Source of the DNA: Okeania sp.
GTDB lineage: Bacteria; Cyanobacteriota; Cyanobacteriia; Cyanobacteriales; Microcoleaceae
Direction: 5' to 3'
Assembly (NCBI RefSeq): GCF_035285525.1
Contig: NZ_JAYKGW010000241.1
Span: forward strand, 1-23,707
DNA: 23,707 nucleotides
A program made the translations under genes and the position numbers. Position 1 is the stretch's first letter. Each line of letters opens with the position of its first letter. Under the pieces are notes generated by a model. It worked only from the letters and a program-made list of their open reading frames with translations, searched no databases and had not been told where the DNA came from. Below are positions 6,308 through 23,707 of this stretch, one piece after another.

Positions 6308-8506
6308 ATGGATGATATTGAAAAGGATTTACAAAGATGGAAGAAAGAGCAAGAACTCATCCTTAACCAAATAGATAATGGCATTGCTCTCTTCAATAAT
6401 TCTCATCACCTAATTCTATTTAATCACAAACTGTCTGAAATTTGGGGATTATTACCAGAGTGGCTAAAAACAAAACCTCATAGCAATGACATCTTTGCCG
6501 AAATAGTTGCTCAAGGTTATTGGTCAACCCAACAACGTCAACAACTACAAAACTGTCTCCTCAAAATCAAAACCGAAAATCAAATACTATACATAGAACA
6601 ATCTAATAAAATTTCCCTGAAAGTAGACTGCACCATTACATCAGACAGAAGTTATCTATTAACCTTTCGAGATATAAGTATATATCAACAGTCTCAAACT
6701 AGCCTCAATGCAGAAGTAAAAAGATTAACATTTCTCCTTGGCCTCAACGAACGACTCCAATACTCAGATAGCTTAAGAGAAATAGCCCAATTTGCCCTTA
6801 ATTATCTCGTAGAAGTAATGAATGCTGCCTTTGGCGATGTCAAAGTTATCAATGGGAAAGGAAAAAAACGTCAAGCAGGACCAATCTCTAATCAAATTAC
6901 TTCTCAATTTATTGCTACCTATGGCAAACCAGCAGTAGCTGAAATGGAAAAATTGTTGCAAAAAGGTATTCCTTATGGTAGAGGACTTTTGTGGGAAGTC
7001 GTCGAGAGCAGCAAACCTATATATGTTGAAAATTATGCTCATCAACCCAATTCAATACCAGGATTTCGTCATCCAGGAATTGGTCAACTAGGAATTTTTC
7101 CAATCCCAGCCACAGATGGGACAATTATTGGTGTTTTGACTTTAGAATCTCGTAACCTGCGAAAACTACAAGAAGCCCCCCAAAAAGATATGTTATTTGC
7201 AGCTTGTCGTACTTTAGGAGTAGCAATAGAAAGAGCCCAGTCTCAAGAACGTCTACGTCAAATTAATGAAGAATTAGAACGTTCTTCTCAATTAAAATCA
7301 GAATTTTTGGCTTCTATGTCCCATGAATTGAGAACCCCGCTTAATAGTATTTTAGGGTTTTCTGATTTATTACAACGACAAGCATCCGAACCATTAAGCG
7401 ATCGCCAGCTTAATCAAGTTAGACTAATTCAAAAAAGTGGTCAACATTTATTAGGGTTAATTAACGATATTCTCGATTTATCTAAGATAGAGTCAGGGAA
7501 AACAGAGCTAAGTTTAGAGTTAATTAATATTCACGAAGTTTGTACAGATTGTTTAAGAATGATTCAGCCACGAGCTGATAAAAAAAGATTGGCTTTATCT
7601 TTAGAATTAGATTATCGCATATCTGAAGCTTATCTTGATCGGCGTCGGGTGAGACAAATAATTATTAATTTACTTTCTAATGCTATTAAGTTTACACCAG
7701 AAGGAGGAAAGGTTAAACTTAGCGGAAGTTTAGCTTATGGTAGTCAAATTCAAGGTGATTATCGACCTGATTGTTCTCCAATTAATTCTAGTACACCTTA
7801 TTTATGTTTAGAGGTAAAAGATTCTGGTATTGGTATTCCCCAAGATAGATGGGAAATGTTATTTAGACCTTTTCAACAAGTTGATTCTTCTTTATCTAGA
7901 AAACATGAAGGTACAGGTTTAGGTTTAGCTTTGACAAAAAGATTAGCAGAATTACATGGTGGAACTATTTCTTTAGATTCTCAAGTTAATAAAGGTAGCA
8001 CTTTCCGGGTGTGGTTGCCATTAACAGAAATGCGCCAGGAGTTAACAGTTAGTTCTGTTCCGAAAAATGACGATCAAGTATCTTCAGAGAGTGATACTGA
8101 GAAAAGATTAGAAACTGAAAAGTCTGTTAGGATTTTAATAGTTGAAGATCAGCCTTATAACCAACTTTTAATTTCTCAAGTATTGGAGTTAGAGGGATAT
8201 GAAGTTGAGTTAATTAGTGATGGTAAAACTATGTTGAATATGATTAATTCTCCTCTGGTTATTTCTCCAAATTTACCAAATTTAATTTTGATGGATATTC
8301 AGTTACCGGAGGTTGATGGGTTAGAATTAATTAAGAAAATTAAGAATAATTCTATATGGCAATATGTACCAGTTATTGCTGTAACTGCTATGGCAATGGT
8401 GGGCGATCAAGAAAAATGTTTAAATGCTGGTGCATTGGCTTATCTTAGTAAACCTTTAAATATTGAAGAGATGGTTTCCACTGTAAAATCTTTGTTGAGT
8501 AATTAG
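6308..8506 (+). CDS. hybrid sensor histidine kinase (PAS - GAF - HisKA - HATPase_c - receiver)
   Basis: 732 aa. H-box is SHELRTPLN. ATPase boxes are LLSNAIKFT, KDSGIGI and GTGLGLALTK. The C-terminal receiver has ILIVEDQ, LILMDIQLPEVDG and SKP. The N-terminal PAS-like segment (IALFNNSHHLILFNHKLSEIWG) and the GAF-like middle region are assigned by pattern only. Confidence 0.9.
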   Translation: MDDIEKDLQRWKKEQELILNQIDNGIALFNNSHHLILFNHKLSEIWGLLPEWLKTKPHSNDIFAEIVAQGYWSTQQRQQLQNCLLKIKTENQILYIEQSNKISLKVDCTITSDRSYLLTFRDISIYQQSQTSLNAEVKRLTFLLGLNERLQYSDSLREIAQFALNYLVEVMNAAFGDVKVINGKGKKRQAGPISNQITSQFIATYGKPAVAEMEKLLQKGIPYGRGLLWEVVESSKPIYVENYAHQPNSIPGFRHPGIGQLGIFPIPATDGTIIGVLTLESRNLRKLQEAPQKDMLFAACRTLGVAIERAQSQERLRQINEELERSSQLKSEFLASMSHELRTPLNSILGFSDLLQRQASEPLSDRQLNQVRLIQKSGQHLLGLINDILDLSKIESGKTELSLELINIHEVCTDCLRMIQPRADKKRLALSLELDYRISEAYLDRRRVRQIIINLLSNAIKFTPEGGKVKLSGSLAYGSQIQGDYRPDCSPINSSTPYLCLEVKDSGIGIPQDRWEMLFRPFQQVDSSLSRKHEGTGLGLALTKRLAELHGGTISLDSQVNKGSTFRVWLPLTEMRQELTVSSVPKNDDQVSSESDTEKRLETEKSVRILIVEDQPYNQLLISQVLELEGYEVELISDGKTMLNMINSPLVISPNLPNLILMDIQLPEVDGLELIKKIKNNSIWQYVPVIAVTAMAMVGDQEKCLNAGALAYLSKPLNIEEMVSTVKSLLSN

Positions 8507-8518
8507 TTAAAGAAAGGA

Positions 8519-8548
8519 GGAAGTAAGAAGTAAGAAGTAAGAAGTAGG
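8519..8548. repeat. heptamer repeat (GAAGTAA)n just after the kinase stop codon
   Basis: ggaagtaagaagtaagaagtaagaagtaggagg. Confidence 0.85.
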
Positions 8549-8620
8549 AGGGAATAAATTATTTATAGTTGTTCAACTTAAGAATGAGACAAGTACTTCT
8601 TGATATAAAAATCCTGTCTT

Positions 8621-8914
8621 TTCTTTTTTCAGAAATAGAGAAATTAGTAATAAGCAATAGATAAAATTTTCAGCATAGATTTCTACTTTTTCATTCCTGT
8701 CAATATAACCAAAGATTGCTATCTGAAAATATTTCATCTAAACAAGTACTTTATTCTTCAATTAAATCACTATAAAAATCCTATTTGATTAGCATCAAAA
8801 ATCCAGCCCTTTCTTTTTTTCAGAAATAGGTAAGTTAGTAATAAGCAATAGATAAAATTTTCCCAATAGATTTCTAGTTTTTGATTCGTGACAATATAAC
8901 CACAGATTGCTATA
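8621..8914. repeat. direct duplication of a 104-bp non-coding block (copies at 8621-8724 and 8811-8914, offset exactly 190 bp)
   Basis: Gap-free alignment gives 92/104 identical positions (tttcttttttcagaaatag..ttagtaataagcaatagataaaattttc..atagatttcta..caatataacca.agattgctat). The flanks (acaagtactt, ataaaaatcct) are also repeated with indels. Confidence 0.85.
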
Positions 8915-9257
8915 TATCTGTCAATGCTGCTATATTTAATTAGTAGTAAGCCATAATTAATTTCCAGACGTTTAAAACCTTTTCTTTCCTTTTAAATTGA
9001 TAATTAGAGATAGTTTTTACTATCCATTATTAATTACAGCTTGCGTATGGAAATATAAAAACATTAACAGATAAAGGTTTTAACCTTTTTTAGTCCTAAA
9101 AAAGTACCTAGTTTTTGGTTATTGCCATCTCCTACAGGGCAGGGTTTTGGCAGTAACAATCAGAAAATTTGGCCGTAGCACATACTCTAAACTGTTCCCA
9201 GTTAAATGTTCCCTATTCCCTTACTTCACTAGCAGACTTTTTCAGCAAACCCTAATT

Positions 9258-9306: not shown

Positions 9307-10737
9307 ATGTCTAACAAACAGCCATGTATTCTAGTAGTTGATGATGAAGCAAATAATCTAACTTTATTAAAAGAACTATTAGAATCAGAAGGATACACCA
9401 CTATATCAGCAAACAATGGTAAAAAAGCACTACAAATTGCTAATCAATCTCCACCTGATTTAATATTACTAGATATAATGATGCCCGAAATTGATGGATT
9501 TGAAGTTTGTAAATCCTTACGTCATAATCCACAATTAAACACAATTCCCATAATTTTTTTAACAGCCCTAAATGATGAAAAATCTCAATTAAAAGGCTTA
9601 GAATTAATGGGAGATGATTATATTACCAAGCCATTTAACACTCCTTTGCTTTTAGCCAAAATTGCTAGTCTTTTACGATTAAATAAAATACGTTCTCAAA
9701 CTACAAAATATCAAAAAAACACTAAAAAACTAGATAAACAAAGTGATTTAGAACTATCAGCAGCATTAAAAATTAATCAAGTTTTATCAGAAAAATTTAG
9801 ATTGTTTGTGCCACAGCAATTTTTATCCAGAATAGCACCCAAAGGTGTAGACTCAATTAAACTTGGGGATGCCACAGAAGAAGAACTAACAGTTCTATTT
9901 TGTGATATTCGAGGCTTTACAGCAATAGCTGAATCACAAAACGCAAGAGATACTTTGAAATGGTTAAATTCTTTTTTTAATGAAATGACTACCAGTATTT
10001 CTGCTAATCAAGGATTTATAGATAAATTTTTAGGTGATGCAATTATGGCAGTATTTGATAAATATGAATATCATAGTTTAAATGGGTTGAAAGCTGCTAT
10101 AAGTATGCAGGAAAATTTACAAAATTTTAATCTTAATTATCATAAATATAATCTCAGAGAACCTGTAAAAATTGGTATTGGTGTTCATACAGGTATTGGT
10201 GTTATTGGTACTTTGGGTTCCGAAAAAAGAATGGATTCTACAGTTATTGGAGACGTTGTTAATACTGCATCTCGTTTAGAAAGTTTAACTAAGACTTATG
10301 GATGTTCAATTATTGTCAGCGAGCAAGTTATTTCGGAAATACAAAATAACTGTCAAGCAGGAAAACAGATAGAAGCTAAGAATAAAAATTGCAATAGTCA
10401 TAATAATCAGCCTACTTACCCTGAAAAAATTTATTACAGGTGGATTGATACAGTTATTTTGCGGGGAAAACAAATAGCTATCAACATTTATGAGTTACTA
10501 GGCACTGAAAAGAATATTATTGAATCCGAAAAAATTGCAACTTTATCAATATTTAATAAAGCAGTTAAAGGATGGAAAGTTGGTAAATATGCAGCAGCTT
10601 TAGAATATTTTCAACAAGTAAAAAAGCTCAACTCTCTTGATAATATTGCTGGTTTATATATCGAACGTTGCCAAGAAAAACTTGTTTTGGTAGAAACTGG
10701 AAAAAATGATGTAAATTTAACTGATTCAAATTTTTAA
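9307..10737 (+). CDS. response-regulator receiver fused to a class III adenylate/guanylate cyclase domain, with a TPR-like C-terminal tail
   Basis: 476 aa. The receiver has ILVVDDE, LILLDIMMPEIDG and TKP. The cyclase homology domain has LTVLFCDIRGFTAIAE, FLGDAIMAVF, IGIGVHTGIGVIGTLG and GDVVNTASRLES. Confidence 0.9.
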   Translation: MSNKQPCILVVDDEANNLTLLKELLESEGYTTISANNGKKALQIANQSPPDLILLDIMMPEIDGFEVCKSLRHNPQLNTIPIIFLTALNDEKSQLKGLELMGDDYITKPFNTPLLLAKIASLLRLNKIRSQTTKYQKNTKKLDKQSDLELSAALKINQVLSEKFRLFVPQQFLSRIAPKGVDSIKLGDATEEELTVLFCDIRGFTAIAESQNARDTLKWLNSFFNEMTTSISANQGFIDKFLGDAIMAVFDKYEYHSLNGLKAAISMQENLQNFNLNYHKYNLREPVKIGIGVHTGIGVIGTLGSEKRMDSTVIGDVVNTASRLESLTKTYGCSIIVSEQVISEIQNNCQAGKQIEAKNKNCNSHNNQPTYPEKIYYRWIDTVILRGKQIAINIYELLGTEKNIIESEKIATLSIFNKAVKGWKVGKYAAALEYFQQVKKLNSLDNIAGLYIERCQEKLVLVETGKNDVNLTDSNF

Positions 10738-10824: not shown

Positions 10825-11385
10825 TATGATATAAGAATCACTCTTACTCTCTTTCCAGCCAACTCTTCTGTAACTTTCCTAGCTCTTAACTATTCCCTAC
10901 CTCCACTTTTTTAGTTTTCATGTTTGAAAATTAAAAATTAGATAAAGTTATAGTTTTCTAATTTTGGTTTTAATATTTTAAATTTTACTATTTTTGTCTG
11001 GCTGTTAAATCGGAAAATTTTTTTGACTTGGTTAACGAAGTTTCAAGATTTTTAGCGCTTTTTTTCAGTTTTGTGATATCCTATACTTATGATATTGTTG
11101 GTATATTTTATGTCTTGACTGATTTTTATGGCTATTAATTCTTATTCTGCTGTTGTTTTGGTTGATTTTTGTCTGAATCTGCTTTGCTCAAAATGACTTT
11201 TTTTCTTTGCCCGTTTTTGGCTATTTTGACAAAATCAAAATTTTGTGATATGGAAGCAGAGTTTTTAGTCTTTTGACATTTTATTTTTGTTGAATAATTA
11301 GTCTAGTGTATGGGCGAAAGAAGTCCAACGATATAATGATACCACGGTTGGTTTGAGGATGCAACCCTAATTCTCAGATTTTTTT

Positions 11386-11990
11386 GGGTGCTTCACAGAA
11401 TGAAAAATTTGAGTAGTTAAGAAAGGTTTGACGAAAGAGGCGATCGCTACTTTACCTCCTGGGGTGCTTCACAGAATGAAAAATTTGAGTAGTTAAAAGA
11501 AGTTGGCTCCAAGAGAAAATTCCTGCCTCCTTTCTTAGGGTGCTTCACAGAATGAAAAATTTGAGTAGTTAAAAGAAGTTGGCTCCAAGAGAAAATTCCT
11601 GCCTCCTTTCTTAGGGTGCTTCACAGAATGAAAAATTTGAGTAGTTAAAAAAGGTTTGAGGAAAGAGGCGATCGCTACTTTCCTTCTGGGGTGCTTCACA
11701 GAATGAAAAATTTGAGTAGTTAAAAAAGGTTTTATGAAAGAGAAAATTCCTACCTCCTTTCTTAGGGTGCTTCAGAGAATGAAAAATTTGAGTAGTTAAA
11801 AGAAGTTGGCTCCAAGAGAAAATCCCTACTTTACCTTCTGGGGTGCTTCACAGAATGAAAAATTTGAGTAGTTAAAAGAAGTTGTCTCCAAGAGAAAATC
11901 CCTACTTTCCTTCTGGAGTGCTTCACAGAATGAAAAATTCTAAGTAGTTTAAGAAAGGTTTGATGAAAAAGCTGATAACTGTTCATTGAA
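11386..11990. repeat. array of 8 tandem 75-76 bp non-coding units (invariant 35-nt core plus a diverged 40-nt half)
   Basis: Unit starts are 11386, 11462, 11538, 11614, 11689, 11765, 11841 and 11916. The core GGGTGCTTCACAGAATGAAAAATTTGAGTAGTTAA is identical in units 1-5 and 7, has one substitution in unit 6, and is degenerate in unit 8. Units 2 and 3 are identical over all 76 nt. Confidence 0.95.
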
Positions 11991-12016
11991 AAGAGGACTT
12001 GATTAATACCAAGTCC
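11985..12016 (-). terminator. likely terminator of the pst operon
   Basis: Minus strand: GGACTTG-gtattaat-CAAGTCC followed by TCTTTTC, 28 nt after the pstB stop codon. Confidence 0.5.
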
Positions 12017-12043
12017 CATAAAAACCAAAATAAAAAACCAACC

Positions 12044-12862
12044 TTAACCGAAACGACCACTTACATACTGTTGAGTAGCTTCCTCCTTCGGATTTTGGAA
12101 AATATTGTGAGTTTCATCAAATTCCACCAAATAACCAAAACGCTGACCACCCTCCTCAGCTTTTGCATTAAAAAAGGCCGTTACATCGGCCACCCTAGTT
12201 GCTTGCTGCATATTGTGAGTCACAATAATAATAGTGTAATTTTCCTTCAGCTCATTAATCAACTCCTCCACCTTAATAGTAGAAATAGGGTCAAGAGAAG
12301 CACAAGGCTCATCCATCAAAACCACATCCGGACTAACAGCAACTGCACGAGCAATACACAAACGTTGTTGCTGACCTCCAGAAAGAGCAAAACCACTTTG
12401 CCCCAACTTATCCTTAACCTCATCCCATAAAACAGCTTGTCGTAGCGATCGCTCAACTATCTCATCCATCTCCTCCTTAGTTTTAGCCAAACCATTAATT
12501 CTAACTCCATAAGCAATATTATCATAAATTGACTTAGGAAAAGGATTAGGCTTTTGAAACACCATTCCGATGCGACGGCGAATTTCTACAGGGTCAATAT
12601 TTGGATCATAAATATTGTGATTATGATAAAGAATACGACCTTTTAAACGGAAAATACTAATCAAATCATTGAGACGATTAAAGCAACGTAATAATGTACT
12701 TTTACCACAACCAGAAGGTCCGATAAAAGCAGTTACTCTATTTTTAGGAATTTCTAATGAAACACCTCTTACCGCTTCAAAACCTCCGTAAAAAATACTG
12801 ACATCTTCTGCTGAAAGAGCAGAAGCAAAATTTACTTTAGAAAGATTTATTTGAGACTCCAT
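12044..12862 (-). CDS. pstB: phosphate ABC transporter ATP-binding protein
   Basis: 272 aa. Walker A is GPSGCGKST, the signature is [14 protein letters not shown] and Walker B is VVLMDEP. It is last in a pstSCAB-ordered cluster. An SD (GGAGG) lies 8 nt before the ATG. Confidence 0.95.
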
Positions 12863-13178: not shown

Positions 13179-14063
13179 TCAAAATTGCTTTTGACTGGTT
13201 GCCCAACGAGAAAGAATACTGGTAATTAAAACCAATAAAACTAACACCAAAGAACCTGCCCAAGCAAACTCTTGTAAAACCAAATCAAAACTACGGGCAA
13301 ACTCATATACTAGATATGCCAAAGATGGTACAGTCGGCGCCAAAGGTCCACGAGGCCAATTATTAGAATAAACCACAGTAAAAAGTAGTGGAGCTGTTTC
13401 TCCAGCAGCACGAGCGATCGCTAGAGTTATACCTGTAATAATACCTGGTAAAGCAGCAGGCAAAACTATTTGTAAAACAGTTTGATAATTAGAAGCACCA
13501 ACTCCTACAGATGCCCATCTAATATCTTTAGGAACTATTTGTAAAGCCTCATCAGTAGTTCTAATAATAGTAGGTAACATCAAAATTGATAAAGCAACTC
13601 CTCCAGCAAATGCAGAAAATTTCCCCATAGTTAAAACCAATAAACTATAGGCAAATACCCCAGCAATAATTGATGGTACACCACTCAAAACATTAGTCGC
13701 AAATCGAATTGGGCGGGAAGTTTTTTCGTCACTAAATTCTGACAAATAAACTGCTGCTAAGATACCAAAAGGTACTGCAATTAAACTAGCAATTACTACT
13801 ACCATAATTGTACCTAAAATAGCATTAGCAATACCCCCTGATGTTTGACCTGCTGCGGGAGGTAATTGAGTAAATAAATCTAAATTTAGACGACTTACTC
13901 CTTTAATAAAAACATAAATTAATACAGCAAAGAGAGGGATAAGAGTGATAACTATGCAACTAGCTGATAAAGCAGTCATCACTTTATTAAAAATTTCCCT
14001 GGAGCTAGTAGGGTTTCTTTTTAGATTAATAGAAGATTGTGGGTTATCGGTAGTATTTTTCAT
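13179..14063 (-). CDS. pstA: phosphate ABC transporter permease
   Basis: 294 aa polytopic membrane protein with a binding-protein-dependent permease loop (LAIARAAGETAPLLFT). Its position between pstC and pstB supports the call. Confidence 0.9.
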   Translation of the reverse strand: MKNTTDNPQSSINLKRNPTSSREIFNKVMTALSASCIVITLIPLFAVLIYVFIKGVSRLNLDLFTQLPPAAGQTSGGIANAILGTIMVVVIASLIAVPFGILAAVYLSEFSDEKTSRPIRFATNVLSGVPSIIAGVFAYSLLVLTMGKFSAFAGGVALSILMLPTIIRTTDEALQIVPKDIRWASVGVGASNYQTVLQIVLPAALPGIITGITLAIARAAGETAPLLFTVVYSNNWPRGPLAPTVPSLAYLVYEFARSFDLVLQEFAWAGSLVLVLLVLITSILSRWATSQKQF

Positions 14064-14113
14064 TTCAGTTATCAGTTACATTTCAGTTATCAATTATCAG
14101 TTATCAGTTATAA
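14064..14113. repeat. STRR heptamer repeat (CAGTTAT-type) abutting the pstA start codon
   Basis: ttcagttatcagttacatttcagttatcaattatcagttatcagttataat. Confidence 0.9.
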
Positions 14114-15624: not shown

Positions 15625-16704
15625 TTATTTGAGAGTCATGGTGTAATCTGGACTAATTTTATCAGCAGCTTCTAGAACTTTTTGACGTACATTTTCAGGT
15701 AGAGGAATATAACCTAATTCAGAACTAACTTGTTGACCTTCATTTAAACCATATTCAATCATTTTTTCTATACCTGTAGCTTTATCTGCATCATCATAAC
15801 TACCATAAACAAGCATCCAAGTATAAGTTACAATAGGATAAGAATCTTCCCCCTCTGGATCGGTAATAAAAGCTCGTAAATTCTCAGGTAATGTAACTGC
15901 GGCTAAAGTTGCTGCCGCTGATTCAGGAGCAGGCTCTATATACTTACCAGCTTGATTTTCTAGAGAAGCCATACTGAGGCCAGCACTCTTAGCATAACCA
16001 TACTCAACATACCCTATAGTTCCTTCTGTTTGTTTAATTTGAGCAGTTACACCATCATTCTTAGCACCACCAATACCTGTTAGCCATTGAACAGTTTTAC
16101 CTTCTCCTACTTTTTCTTTCCACTCTGGACTAATAGCACTTAAATGCTGGGTGAAAACTCCAGTTGTACCACTACCATCAGAACGATATACAACTGTAAT
16201 AGCTTGATCTGGCAAAGTCAAATCCGGATTGATTTCAGCTATTTTGGGGTCATTCCAGTTAGTAATCTTACCCAAAAGGATATCTACATAAACTTTTCTG
16301 GAAAGTTTGAGACCAGAAATATCAGGCAAGTTGTAAGCTAAAACCACACTACCCGCAGTCATCGGTAGTAAGATAACCCCTCTCCCTACTTTGGCAATTT
16401 CATCATCTTTCATTGCCACATCAGAAGCACCAAAATCTACTAACTCTTGAGTAAATCTTTCCACACCAGCTCCACTACCAACTGACTGATAATCTACTTG
16501 TATATTAAGGTCAGTATTACCTAACTCTTGAAACCAACGTTGATAGATAGGTGATGGAAAAGAAGCTCCAGCTCCAACTAAGCTTACTGAACCACCTCCA
16601 TTATTACTACCACCACTACAGGAAGCCAAACCAAATGTTATAACTACTGCCGATACCTTTGCTGTAATATTAGTTATTCCAGAAAGACTTATACCAAATT
16701 CCAT
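15625..16704 (-). CDS. pstS: periplasmic phosphate-binding protein, lipoprotein form
   Basis: 359 aa. It has a lipobox (FGLASC followed by a SGGSNNGGGS linker) and PstS-type motifs GAGASFPSPIYQRW, YQSVGSGAGV and YRSDGSGTT. Confidence 0.95.
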   Translation of the reverse strand: MEFGISLSGITNITAKVSAVVITFGLASCSGGSNNGGGSVSLVGAGASFPSPIYQRWFQELGNTDLNIQVDYQSVGSGAGVERFTQELVDFGASDVAMKDDEIAKVGRGVILLPMTAGSVVLAYNLPDISGLKLSRKVYVDILLGKITNWNDPKIAEINPDLTLPDQAITVVYRSDGSGTTGVFTQHLSAISPEWKEKVGEGKTVQWLTGIGGAKNDGVTAQIKQTEGTIGYVEYGYAKSAGLSMASLENQAGKYIEPAPESAAATLAAVTLPENLRAFITDPEGEDSYPIVTYTWMLVYGSYDDADKATGIEKMIEYGLNEGQQVSSELGYIPLPENVRQKVLEAADKISPDYTMTLK

Positions 16705-16768: not shown

Positions 16769-16818
16769 GGTTAAAGGAAGGTTAAAGAAAGGTTAAAGGA
16801 AGGTTAAAGGAAGGTTGA
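16769..16818 (-). promoter_or_regulatory. Pho-box array (PhoB/SphR binding sites) upstream of pstS-pstCAB
   Basis: The plus strand shows ggttaaaggaa ggttaaagaaa ggttaaaggaa ggttaaaggaa ggttgatgata with an exact 11-bp phase. The minus strand reads TTTAACCT + 3 nt, repeated. This matches the published cyanobacterial Pho-box consensus PyTTAAPyPy(T/A) with a 3-nt linker. It lies 65-115 nt upstream of the pstS ATG. Confidence 0.75.
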
Positions 16819-17133: not shown

Positions 17134-18234
17134 TTACTTAAGTTTAATTTGATAGCCAGAGCTAATTTTATCAGCAGCAGCAGCAACTGTTTGACGAACA
17201 TTGTTAGGTAGTGGAATATAACCTAATTCAGCACTTACCTTTTGCCCTTCATTTAAGCCATATTCAACCATTTTTTCTATAGCTACACCTTTAGATCCAT
17301 CATACTTGCTATACATTAGCATCCAAGTATAAGTAGCAATAGGATAAGAATTAGCACCGTCAGGATCGCTAATAAACGCACGAAGATTTCCAGGTAATTT
17401 TACTGCTGCTAAAGTAGCCTTAACTGAATCTTGAGAAGCGCTAACATATTTACCAGCTTTATTTTGTAGAGCTGCTGTAGGGAGACCAGCGCTCTTAGCA
17501 AAACCAAACTCAATATATCCTATTCCTCCCTTTATTTGTTTGATTTGAGCAGCTACACCATCATTCTTCGCACCGCCAACACCTGTTGGCCATTGAACAG
17601 TCTTACCTTCTCCTACTTTACTCTTCCACTCTGGACTAATAGCACTCAAATGCTTAGTGAAAACTCCAGTGGTACCACTACCATCAGAACGATGAACTAC
17701 CGTAATTGGTAGGTTAGGCAAATTTACCCCAGAATTAATAGCTTGAATTTTAGCATCATTCCAGTTTTTAATTTTACCCAAAAATATATCTACATAAACA
17801 GCTCTGGATAATTTTAGGTTAGATACACCTGGAACATTGTAAGCTAACACAACACTACCTGCTGTCATAGGAAGCATGATAACACCTCTCTTAACTTTGG
17901 CAATTTCATCATCTTTCATTGCCACATCAGAAGCACCGAAATCTACTAATTCTTGAGTAAAATCTCTAACACCAGCACCACTACCTTTGGATTGATAGTC
18001 TACACTAACATCTTTAAAATCTTTAAACCAACGCTGATACAGTGGAGCAGGAAAAGATGCACCCGATCCTAAAAGCTTAACTTTTTGTTGGGCTAGACTG
18101 TACTTTACTCCAGCAACTGTAGTAACTAAACCAATAGTTAATGCTACGAGGGAAGCTTTGGAGGTATTACGAATTACTCGACTAAGATTGATACCAAGTG
18201 TCATGTATTTACTCTCTGATATTGAATTTAACAA
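17134..18234 (-). CDS. pstS: periplasmic phosphate-binding protein, second paralog with a non-lipoprotein signal peptide
   Basis: 366 aa, and by eye roughly 75-80% identical to the neighbouring PstS over the mature part. The N-terminus has a TM/signal segment ending SLAQQ with no Cys. Alignment with the paralog suggests the true start may be the Met at 18204 (MTLGINLS..). Confidence 0.9.
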   Translation of the reverse strand: MLNSISESKYMTLGINLSRVIRNTSKASLVALTIGLVTTVAGVKYSLAQQKVKLLGSGASFPAPLYQRWFKDFKDVSVDYQSKGSGAGVRDFTQELVDFGASDVAMKDDEIAKVKRGVIMLPMTAGSVVLAYNVPGVSNLKLSRAVYVDIFLGKIKNWNDAKIQAINSGVNLPNLPITVVHRSDGSGTTGVFTKHLSAISPEWKSKVGEGKTVQWPTGVGGAKNDGVAAQIKQIKGGIGYIEFGFAKSAGLPTAALQNKAGKYVSASQDSVKATLAAVKLPGNLRAFISDPDGANSYPIATYTWMLMYSKYDGSKGVAIEKMVEYGLNEGQKVSAELGYIPLPNNVRQTVAAAADKISSGYQIKLK

Positions 18235-19838: not shown

Positions 19839-19976
19839 CTATAAAATTATTATTTCTTCCCTGTTCCCTGTTCCCTGTTCCCTGTTCCCTGTTCCCTGTT
19901 CCCTGTTCCCTGTTCCCTGTTCCCTCTATAAAATTATTATTTCTTCCCTGTTCCCTGTTCCCTGTTCCGTGTTCCC
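19839..19976. repeat. nested repeat: the block [ctataaaattattatttctt + (CCCTGTT)n] occurs twice
   Basis: The 20-mer is at 19839-19858 and again at 19926-19945. (CCCTGTT) occurs as 9 perfect copies at 19859-19921, and about 4 copies at 19946-19976. Confidence 0.95.
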
Positions 19977-19994
19977 TCTCTCAACTTAACTGAA

Positions 19995-23501: not shown

Positions 23502-23546
23502 TAGATATCTCCAGAAAAGAGAGAACACTTAACTGGGAACAGAGAA

Positions 23547-23707
23547 CAGTTGTAGGTTGGGTTGAGGGACGAAACCCAACAAAACTTTGAACAGTTGTAG
23601 GTTGGGTTGAGGGACGAAACCCAACAAAACTTTGAACAGTTGTAGGTTGGGTTGAGGGACGAAACCCAACAAAACTTTGAACAGTTGTAGGTTGGGTTGA
23701 GGGACGA
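23547..23707. repeat. 45-bp tandem repeat (at least 3.5 copies, running off the window), each unit holding an 8-bp-stem hairpin
   Basis: The unit cagttgtaggttgggttgagggacgaaacccaacaaaactttgaa starts at 23547, 23592, 23637 and 23682. The hairpin is GTTGGGTT-gagggacga-AACCCAAC. Confidence 0.95.

Follow-up and report, generated by a model that had tools for sequence, protein, structure and literature searches.

In the tandem NsiR1 arrays of the Nostocales, a folded small RNA (sRNA) of ∼60 nt is encoded by each repeat, which is equipped with a promoter and a terminator of its own (PMC6596454). For Trichodesmium and its relatives, unusually large non-coding genome fractions and extremely abundant non-coding RNAs (ncRNAs) without assigned function have been described (PMC4143802). 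Here, we analyze a tandem array of eight short units that lies beside the pst operon in a 23,707-nt contig of Okeania sp. (RefSeq assembly GCF_035285525.1, contig NZ_JAYKGW010000241.1, positions 1–23,707), referred to as the window. An earlier note, made from the letters of this DNA, had called the array non-coding and had likened it to NsiR1. Judged from its sequence and that of related loci, the array is an amplified cassette of a Shine-Dalgarno (SD)-like site, an AUG, a mini-open reading frame (mini-ORF), and a stop codon, and it belongs to a large, undescribed repeat or small-gene family of the Microcoleaceae. It is a genuine, constrained element that is positionally conserved next to pstB.

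Anatomy of the Array

The array occupies positions 11386–11990 on the plus strand. Tandem Repeats Finder assigned it a period of 76, 7.7 copies, and a score of 651 and placed its end at 11968. Aligned to each other, the units start at 11386, 11462, 11538, 11614, 11689, 11765, 11841, and 11916, with spacings of 76/76/76/75/76/76/75 bp; the last unit is degenerate. Every unit opens with a 35-nt core (GGGTGCTTCACAGAATGAAAAATTTGAGTAGTTAA; 11386–11420 in unit 1). Six of the eight copies are exact, that of unit 6 differs at one position, and that of unit 8 is degenerate, whereas shuffled sequences gave an expectation of zero core matches. Compared in pairs, units 1–7 average 99.2% identity over the core but 73% over the other ∼40 nt, where the lowest value is 49%. 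These tails are either of an A type, which contains a HIP1-centered imperfect palindrome (GGAAAGAGGCGATCGCTACTTTCC; 11660–11683, plus strand, in unit 4, with its unit 1 equivalent at ∼11432–11455), or of a B type; units 2 and 3 are identical, and units 5–7 are chimeric. The A tail also occurs in a sister locus (L046; loci collected for comparison carry L numbers). Alignment, shuffles, and Tandem Repeats Finder confirm what the earlier note had described: the eight units, their spacings, the core shared by six of them, the two tail types, the chimeras, and the pair of identical units.

The invariant 35 nt span exactly the distance from an SD-like GGGTG to the TAA of a mini-ORF. The SD-like site, which reads GGGGTG where the preceding unit ends in G, is separated by a 9-nt spacer (CTTCACAGA) from an ATG that opens a frame of six codons (ATG AAA AAT TTG AGT AGT TAA; 11400–11420, plus strand). 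The corresponding ATGs of the other cores are located at 11476, 11552, 11628, 11703, 11779, 11855, and 11930. The last 12 nt of the core (TTGAGTAGTTAA) comprise TGA, TAG, and TAA, one in each plus-strand frame. It was from these stops that the array had been declared non-coding. The stops are indeed present in all three frames, but the conclusion is too strong, because each core contains a complete six-codon ORF, and stops in three frames may just as well close a mini-cistron, whatever its frame. Similarly, the units are arranged in tandem as described but are not free-standing: a module of the family (11290–11385) directly precedes unit 1.

Homologous Arrays at the pst Locus

In the window, a hybrid histidine kinase gene and a response-regulator/adenylate cyclase gene (9307–10737, plus strand; Pfam Response_reg and Guanylate_cyc) are followed by a 1.3-kb gap with the array and by pstB-pstA-pstC-pstS on the minus strand. 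The cyclase gene, which forms the left flank of the gap, served as the anchor for fetching seven orthologous loci (L083, L084, and L086–L090). The synteny of histidine kinase, cyclase, gap, and pstBACS is kept in five of them (L083, L084, L086, L087, and L088); L089 retains the cyclase-pstBAC part, and in L090 a thioesterase gene follows the cyclase gene and synteny is lost.

Homologous arrays were found in the same cyclase–pstB gap of Okeania SIO3I5 (L083; 22 units of 71–76 nt), a Trichodesmium metagenome-assembled genome (MAG) (L086; 12 units), and a Joint Genome Institute (JGI) metagenome contig (L088; two to three units), with the cores on the cyclase strand in all three. In L083 and L088, the stop codon of the cyclase gene is followed after 4 nt by the first ATG. 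No array is present at the locus in Dapis, Okeania KiyG1, Okeania SIO2G4, or a Microcoleaceae MAG. In the Dapis locus (L084, Dapis sp. BLCC M229), an IS605-type tnpB (OrfB_IS605, Cas12f1-like_TNB; 7774–9195) fills the gap, with no core left and no trace of Box1, the conserved box of the family (see below). Two further peculiarities of these loci are a tandem duplication of the last ∼240 nt of the cyclase gene before the short array of L088 (6486–6960) and public gene calls of 42–74 amino acids inside the array of L083 (7637–8716, minus strand), which are probably spurious ORFs created by the repeats.

Across the arrays, only unit positions 1–20 are invariant or nearly so, and positions 21–35 of the window core are lineage-specific. 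The constrained core postulated in the earlier note is thereby borne out for its first ∼20 nt, which are (nearly) invariant in arrays at four other loci and in ∼100 dispersed copies. The question of whether the core recurs, also raised there, has a twofold answer: arrays recur at the pst locus (L083, L086, and L088), and the ∼100 dispersed copies have unrelated neighbors. The CCTCC tract to which the note had drawn attention is likewise kept in the orthologous arrays (as CCACCTCC in L083, L086, and L088). Upstream of the array, an AT-rich spacer (10907–11289, plus strand) is shared, by blastn against the collected loci, only with the closest relatives, L035 (83%) and L046 (82%). Behind this same spacer and module there are one core in L035, three in L046, and eight in the window, indicating that the window array is a recent expansion.

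These comparisons bear on two readings that start from the surroundings and the layout of the array. In the first, already offered in the earlier note, the array would titrate the phosphate regulator (SphR/PhoB) through Pho boxes. The pst operon does adjoin, and a PyTTAAPyPy-like octamer lies on the minus strand of each window core. However, this half-site (TTTAACTA) belongs to the stretch of the core that is not conserved, the orthologous arrays lack it, and a single octamer per 75–76 bp lacks the 11-bp phasing of the repeats at 16769–16816. The latter comprise 4.4 copies of an 11-bp unit (GGTTAAAGGAA) with Pho-box-like phasing and are situated upstream of pstS (15625–16704, minus strand). 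In the second reading, the array would be a degenerate CRISPR array, which would account for a 35-nt repeat, “spacers” of ∼40 nt, a leader-like AT-rich left flank, and a degenerate last repeat. Yet the “spacers” are homologous to each other, up to the identity of units 2 and 3, and the tails are near-identical along the arrays of L083 and L086; moreover, the repeat has no hairpin, and no cas genes were found among the ten largest ORFs of the window by Pfam. We regard either reading as scarcely credible.

A Dispersed Family with a Conserved Module

Genomes were scanned with one core 20-mer, and metagenomes with a pattern for Box1 (TTGAATAAWWAGTCNNGNGNANRGGCGA). The 20-mer matched in three species only, one Microcoleaceae MAG and two Okeania (L001–L003). 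There, the 5′ part of the core (GGTGCTTCACAGAATGA) closes a conserved module of ∼115 nt, which is itself present two to four times and starts with TTGAATAAAAAGTC..G.G.A.GGGCGA (“Box1”). The metagenome scan returned 103 matches, including 90 full-length modules (88 distinct), on 77 contigs from 13 assemblies, and the Box1 pattern is also present in L001–L003. The family is thus dispersed, with ∼100 copies on 77 metagenome contigs and in three genomes, and its conserved cassette corresponds to the first ∼20 nt of the core (G.G.GCTTCA...AATGAAA). This repeat or small-gene family is large, undescribed, and specific to Microcoleaceae of the Okeania/Trichodesmium type. The family context, the single promoter module before the array, and the nature of the core as an SD-ATG-mini-ORF-stop cassette had been missed in the earlier note.

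A family member consists of the 28-nt Box1, a palindromic −10 element, a variable stretch of ∼45 nt, a T-run, and the ∼20-nt core. In the module alignment, conservation peaks at Box1, at the −10 palindrome (ATGATATCAT) with an ATGCAA hexamer 17 nt further on, and at the T-run with GGAGCTTCA.A.AATGAAAA, whereas the intervening sequence is variable. Box1 of the window (TTGAATAATTAGTCTAGTGTATGGGCGA; 11290–11317, plus strand) is the single match there, with zero expected, and is near-invariant in the family (∼0.9 identity per column in 88 copies). It would either serve the core strand as an upstream promoter or regulator site or belong to an opposite-strand RNA as its 5′ part. A hairpin in Box1 was considered and rejected, as G-T and A-C counts (95 versus 86) gave no strand signal. 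Directly before the first core of the window lies a run of seven Ts (11379–11385, plus strand); a T-run also appears in the profile of 177 anchored cores, with T at positions −17 and −16 in 84 of 88 copies. In the single-copy members L019 and L066, the core is followed by a HIP1 hairpin (GCGATCGC) and then by a T-run.

Searches of Rfam 15 with the window (gathering threshold), with 11000–12100 (E ≤ 10), and with 11 related loci yielded no relevant match, RNase P in L003 being the only hit. The Box1 and core strings had no match in the literature searched by sequence, and the main text of the Trichodesmium primary transcriptome paper reports other repeat-derived ncRNAs and nothing identifiable as the family. 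A link to the ncRNA “next to a photolyase gene” of that paper was discarded, because a Pfam scan of the module neighbors found no photolyase. Viral contigs gave no Box1 match and two matches to a degenerate core pattern, which are probably due to chance. The modules have no fixed partner gene; their neighbors are unrelated (RuvC, NucS-like, kinases, HisRS, SdrD-like, TPR-sulfotransferases, and SasA-like). In a single case, possibly a coincidence (L040, 395–2391), a module with the mini-ORF MKMLVIFH precedes a co-oriented histidyl-tRNA synthetase gene by 132 nt.

Dispersal of this kind raises the possibility of a selfish or neutral repeat, that is, a MITE-like (miniature inverted-repeat transposable element) or recombination-spread element from the end of which slippage and unequal crossing-over made a satellite. 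The core would then be uniform as a homology tract for gene conversion or mobility and not for use by the host. Many dispersed copies in unrelated contexts (77 contigs) are a MITE-type trait, and the ∼100 copies have unrelated neighbors, often lie at contig ends, and often stand two to four in tandem. Copy number at the same locus varies from 0 to 22, unequal crossing-over is suggested by the units that are identical (2 and 3) or chimeric, and the module is found on either side of the array and in either orientation. The most diverse MITE sets reported are those of Okeania (PMC11602168), which also counts for this rival, as do the promoter-less units of L051 and L065, apparently the products of a deletion between GAAAAT(T)CC direct repeats and of subsequent amplification. 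In contrast, no consistent terminal inverted repeats or target duplications surround five single-copy modules. Conservation is limited to the promoter-like hexamers, Box1, and the start-site-like core, and the ORF varies in a codon-like manner (see below), as would be expected of expressed genes and not of transposon ends. Furthermore, A and B tails are both retained in L046 and the window, and the position of the array is kept across genera. We treat a selfish or neutral origin as a serious rival, although on balance an unlikely one.

The promoter-less units of L051 (804–2125) and L065 (198–1413) form arrays with a unit length of ∼160 nt and two cores each, termed α and β. A separate inverted-repeat element near modules in L058 (3798–3930) and L064 (44–175), with arms ACAGGGCAAACGGATCT and AGATGCGTTTGCCCTGT spaced ∼85–100 nt apart, looks like a different small hairpin repeat.

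Start-site Features of the Core

At the RNA level, a U-tract is followed by GGAG or GGUG and, after a 9-nt spacer, by AUG and AAA, beyond which the sequence remains rich in A; this is the layout of a strong translation-initiation region. The variable position of the SD-like site (−11) is A in 66, T in 21, C in 1, and G in none of 88 family copies, which gives GGAG or GGUG. Duplexes with the 3′ end of 16S rRNA have a median energy of −6.5 kcal/mol in the family, compared with −2.8 kcal/mol for control ATGs, and the window units range from −7.3 to −9.8 kcal/mol, compared with a mean of −2.9 kcal/mol for all 262 ATGs of the window.

Codon periodicity was measured outside the window; the units of the window are identical. 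In α, the commonest subfamily, 72 distinct copies share an eight-codon ORF with the consensus M-K-M-L/F-V-I/V-F-H/Y. Their entropy at codon positions 1/2/3 is 0.59/0.42/1.04, and position 3 is the most variable in six of seven codons (p ∼0.007 under equal chances). The periodicity ends at codon 8–9, where 38 of the 72 copies have a stop. The β core, ∼130 nt downstream of α, opens with MKIFLVLLLGK... and displays a weaker periodicity in the same direction (0.67/0.60/1.02).

No conserved RNA structure was found in the units. An alifold consensus of 31 units reaches −0.82 kcal/mol and shows no covariation, for which the earlier note had proposed to look, and the fold of the whole array compared with shuffles gives z = −0.12 for the plus strand and +1.38 for the minus strand. 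Such a lack of structure is in keeping with an open start region and speaks against a folded sRNA. From its layout, duplex energies, and codon pattern, the core looks like a strong ribosome start site followed by a mini-gene, of six codons in the window.

Promoters and Strand

The module carries a palindromic −10 element (11332–11341) that reads TATAAT on the plus strand (11332–11337) and TATCAT on the minus strand (11341–11336). On the minus strand, it is accompanied (11342–11364) by an extended −10 motif TGG (11344–11342) and, with a 17-nt spacer, by a TTGCAT −35 hexamer (11364–11359). The plus strand, which is the strand of the core, has the perfect TATAAT and no −35 hexamer; Box1 sits in its place. 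The minus-strand geometry is constant in the family (17-nt spacer in 62 of 92, TGn in 58 of 92), the ATGCAA hexamer being conserved and the spacer sequence variable. The palindromic −10, the σ70 match on the opposite strand, conservation in the direction of that strand, and the inverted modules of several loci suggest that the module is probably a bidirectional promoter.

Expression of the array on the plus strand is what we infer from two lines of evidence. One is the core itself, with its start-site anatomy and coding-like variation; the other is that the cores point the same way as the cyclase gene in all five loci. No plus-strand terminator was detected between the cyclase gene and pstB in the window, nor between the cyclase gene and the array in L086. 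Beyond the array lies the pstB terminator hairpin (11994–12017, minus strand), which is not followed by a T-run on the plus strand. Next comes pstB itself (12044–12862, minus strand; Pfam ABC_tran, with pstA, pstC, and pstS as neighbors), the last gene of pstSCAB and convergent with the array; an exact look-up of its ORF matched no record.

The earlier note had placed a promoter in every unit and thus read the array as NsiR1-like sRNA genes, each with a σ70 promoter (TTCACA-N16-TAGTTA) and a CCUCC anti-SD seed. The tandem arrangement between genes of a filamentous cyanobacterium, the conservation of the CCTCC tract in the orthologous arrays, and the hairpin of the A-type tails would all fit. 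However, TAGTTA lies in the lineage-specific half of the core and is conserved only in the lineage of the window and L046; the orthologous arrays read TTCAGCAAATGAAACGACTATTACTCTC instead, the units of L083 and L086 offer no alternative −10, and the element is absent in other family members. A consensus promoter scan found none inside the units, there is neither an Rfam match (at gathering or E ≤ 10) nor a conserved fold, and the one conserved promoter module lies outside the units. What is left of the analogy is a broad likeness to tandem small-gene arrays with a promoter, whereas a promoter per unit and membership in NsiR1 find no support. We consider NsiR1-like sRNA genes very improbable.

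The strong promoter of the opposite strand lends itself to another explanation, in which the array acts as DNA and binds a protein, either as an upstream platform for that promoter or as a nucleoid or titration site. A small palindrome (TTCA-N5-TGAA) is present in the window, in L083 and L086, and in the α and β cores, and its copies recur every 71–76 bp, or ∼7 helical turns. The array lies directly upstream of the TTGCAT-17-TGnTATCAT promoter in both arrangements, with the promoter firing away from it, and a palindromic site would suit independence from orientation, as it would the lack of a conserved RNA fold. Against this, the half-sites measure only 4 bp, and the flanking conservation is asymmetric, with GGAGC on one side and AAA on the other. 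Codon periodicity after the ATG would be unexpected for a DNA site, arrays that reach >1 kb upstream of one promoter have no citable precedent, and no candidate regulator is linked. A protein-binding array is, in our estimate, decidedly improbable.

In the three loci with inverted modules, a block of ∼160 nt between the module and the 3′ end of pstB is 84–86% conserved (L086, 7752–7909; L083, 9333–9496; L088, 7338–7494), and pieces of it also adjoin Box1 in the unrelated loci L064, L073, L052, and L053. The block may belong to an RNA from the opposite-strand promoter. Pairing of the reverse complement of Box1 in such an RNA with the start of the core was rejected, as the duplex is no better than shuffles (−11.2 versus −12.1).

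Proposed Role of the Array

The reading that we prefer, with a probability of roughly 0.4, is that the array works as a plus-strand RNA with multiple mini-cistrons. The 3′ cassette of the family would have been amplified in tandem in a lineage-specific manner, from one to three and then to eight copies. Transcription of the plus strand would start from the family promoter (11290–11340), or would read through from the cyclase gene, which has no detectable terminator, or both. One RNA would then carry eight ribosome-loading mini-cistrons; heading toward the 3′ end of pstB, it would probably enter that gene as antisense. Constraint would rest on the start region and on the act of short translation, not on a fold or a long peptide, and copy number would set the dose.

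Several observations weigh against such an RNA. The better σ70 match (TTGCAT-17-TGn-TATCAT) is on the opposite strand and fires leftward, away from the array, and in several single-copy members the conserved sequence continues in the direction of that promoter. In L083, L086, and L088, the module is inverted and follows the array, so that its promoter cannot drive those arrays in sense. The arrays at the pstB locus have no codon periodicity (0.50/0.60/0.55), and 6 of their 36 units read ATG AAA TGA. Indels that are not multiples of three alter the peptide within the lineage of the window (MKNLSS versus MN versus MKKIE); in the sister locus L046, they result in MN* and MKKIE*, with the three-frame stop kept. 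ORFs of 6–9 codons are close to chance level at 34% GC, the CTTCA of the spacer is conserved as strongly as the SD-like site and the ATG, which a pure start site would not need, and small mobile repeats are exceptionally abundant in Okeania genomes (PMC11602168).

Taken further, the multi-mini-cistron RNA would represent an undescribed class of element in Okeania and Trichodesmium: small transcription units with a ribosome-loading mini-cistron that can be amplified to arrays of 8–22 copies, one of which has been kept between the cyclase gene and the pst operon. These would act via repeated ribosome engagement or via peptides of 6–9 residues and not via a fold or a base-pairing seed. This generalization is doubtful, and we offer it as a conjecture. 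If it were true, an antisense transcript that runs into pstB might be shielded or driven by the mini-cistron RNA, which might alternatively sense translation capacity. Expressed arrays of this type would be a new way to build a regulatory RNA, from many tandem ribosome start sites. The neighbor of the array is the main phosphate-uptake operon of relatives of ecologically important marine diazotrophs. With at least 100 copies, a start-site-like core, and a promoter box that hardly varies, the family would offer a concrete and testable piece of the non-coding fraction described for Trichodesmium and its relatives. If the family were selfish, it would be useful as a marker of genome plasticity and as a warning for CRISPR finders and gene callers.

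Other Features of the Window

The window has a GC content of 34%. Its ten largest ORFs encode, according to Pfam, the histidine kinase, the response-regulator/cyclase, PstSCAB, a second PstS, a radical-SAM/BATS protein, a RecQ-like helicase, and a DUF2854 protein; the second pstS paralogue is located at 17134–18234. Both contig ends consist of 45-bp tandem repeats (1–198 with 98% matches and 23544–23707 with 100%), the left of which is overlapped by a 33-bp array, and the assembly probably breaks inside these repeat arrays. Heptamer tandem runs of the short tandemly repeated repetitive (STRR) type (TTCCCTG ×17 and TCAGTTA) occur at 19857–19977, 14058–14111, and 2309–2342. STRR heptamers are common in filamentous cyanobacteria.

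Comparison with Known Systems

The Okeania array shares with NsiR1, which is found in the Nostocales and lies upstream of hetF in Anabaena PCC 7120, the short tandem direct repeats, the intergenic position, the filamentous cyanobacterial host, a conserved type of promoter, and membership in a multi-copy family. It differs in having one promoter module outside the units, no conserved fold, no Rfam match, and a conserved SD-AUG cassette. CRISPR arrays resemble it in the 35-nt repeat, the intervening segments of ∼40 nt, the AT-rich upstream flank, and the degenerate terminal repeat, whereas the intervening segments of Okeania are paralogous and conserved between species, with no cas genes in the window and no hairpin in the repeat. 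In CsrB/RsmZ decoy RNAs, many SD-like motifs are likewise repeated in one RNA, with copy number as dose. However, their GGA motifs are presented in hairpin loops every 15–20 nt and bind CsrA, whereas the Okeania units measure 76 nt, are unstructured, and carry a start codon and an ORF.

Type I toxin–antitoxin modules of E. coli (LDR ldr/rdl and SIB/QUAD ibs/sib) also combine tandem and dispersed short modules with a tiny hydrophobic ORF and a strong opposed promoter near its 5′ region, and hydrophobic ORFs such as MKMLVIFH and MKIFLVLLLGK... of the Okeania family can be cited for this likeness. In contrast to the toxins, the Okeania ORFs are far shorter and variable in length, an antisense overlap with the start site is not evident, and the complementarity test was negative. 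The bar minigenes of phage λ and leader mini-ORFs share the plan of an SD site, an AUG, 1–8 codons, and a stop, and the family contains two-codon ORFs (ATG AAA TGA in L083 and L086, ATG AAT TAG in L046). Whereas those are single leader elements, the mini-ORFs of Okeania and its relatives stand in 8–22 tandem copies 3′ of a gene and belong to a family with its own promoter.

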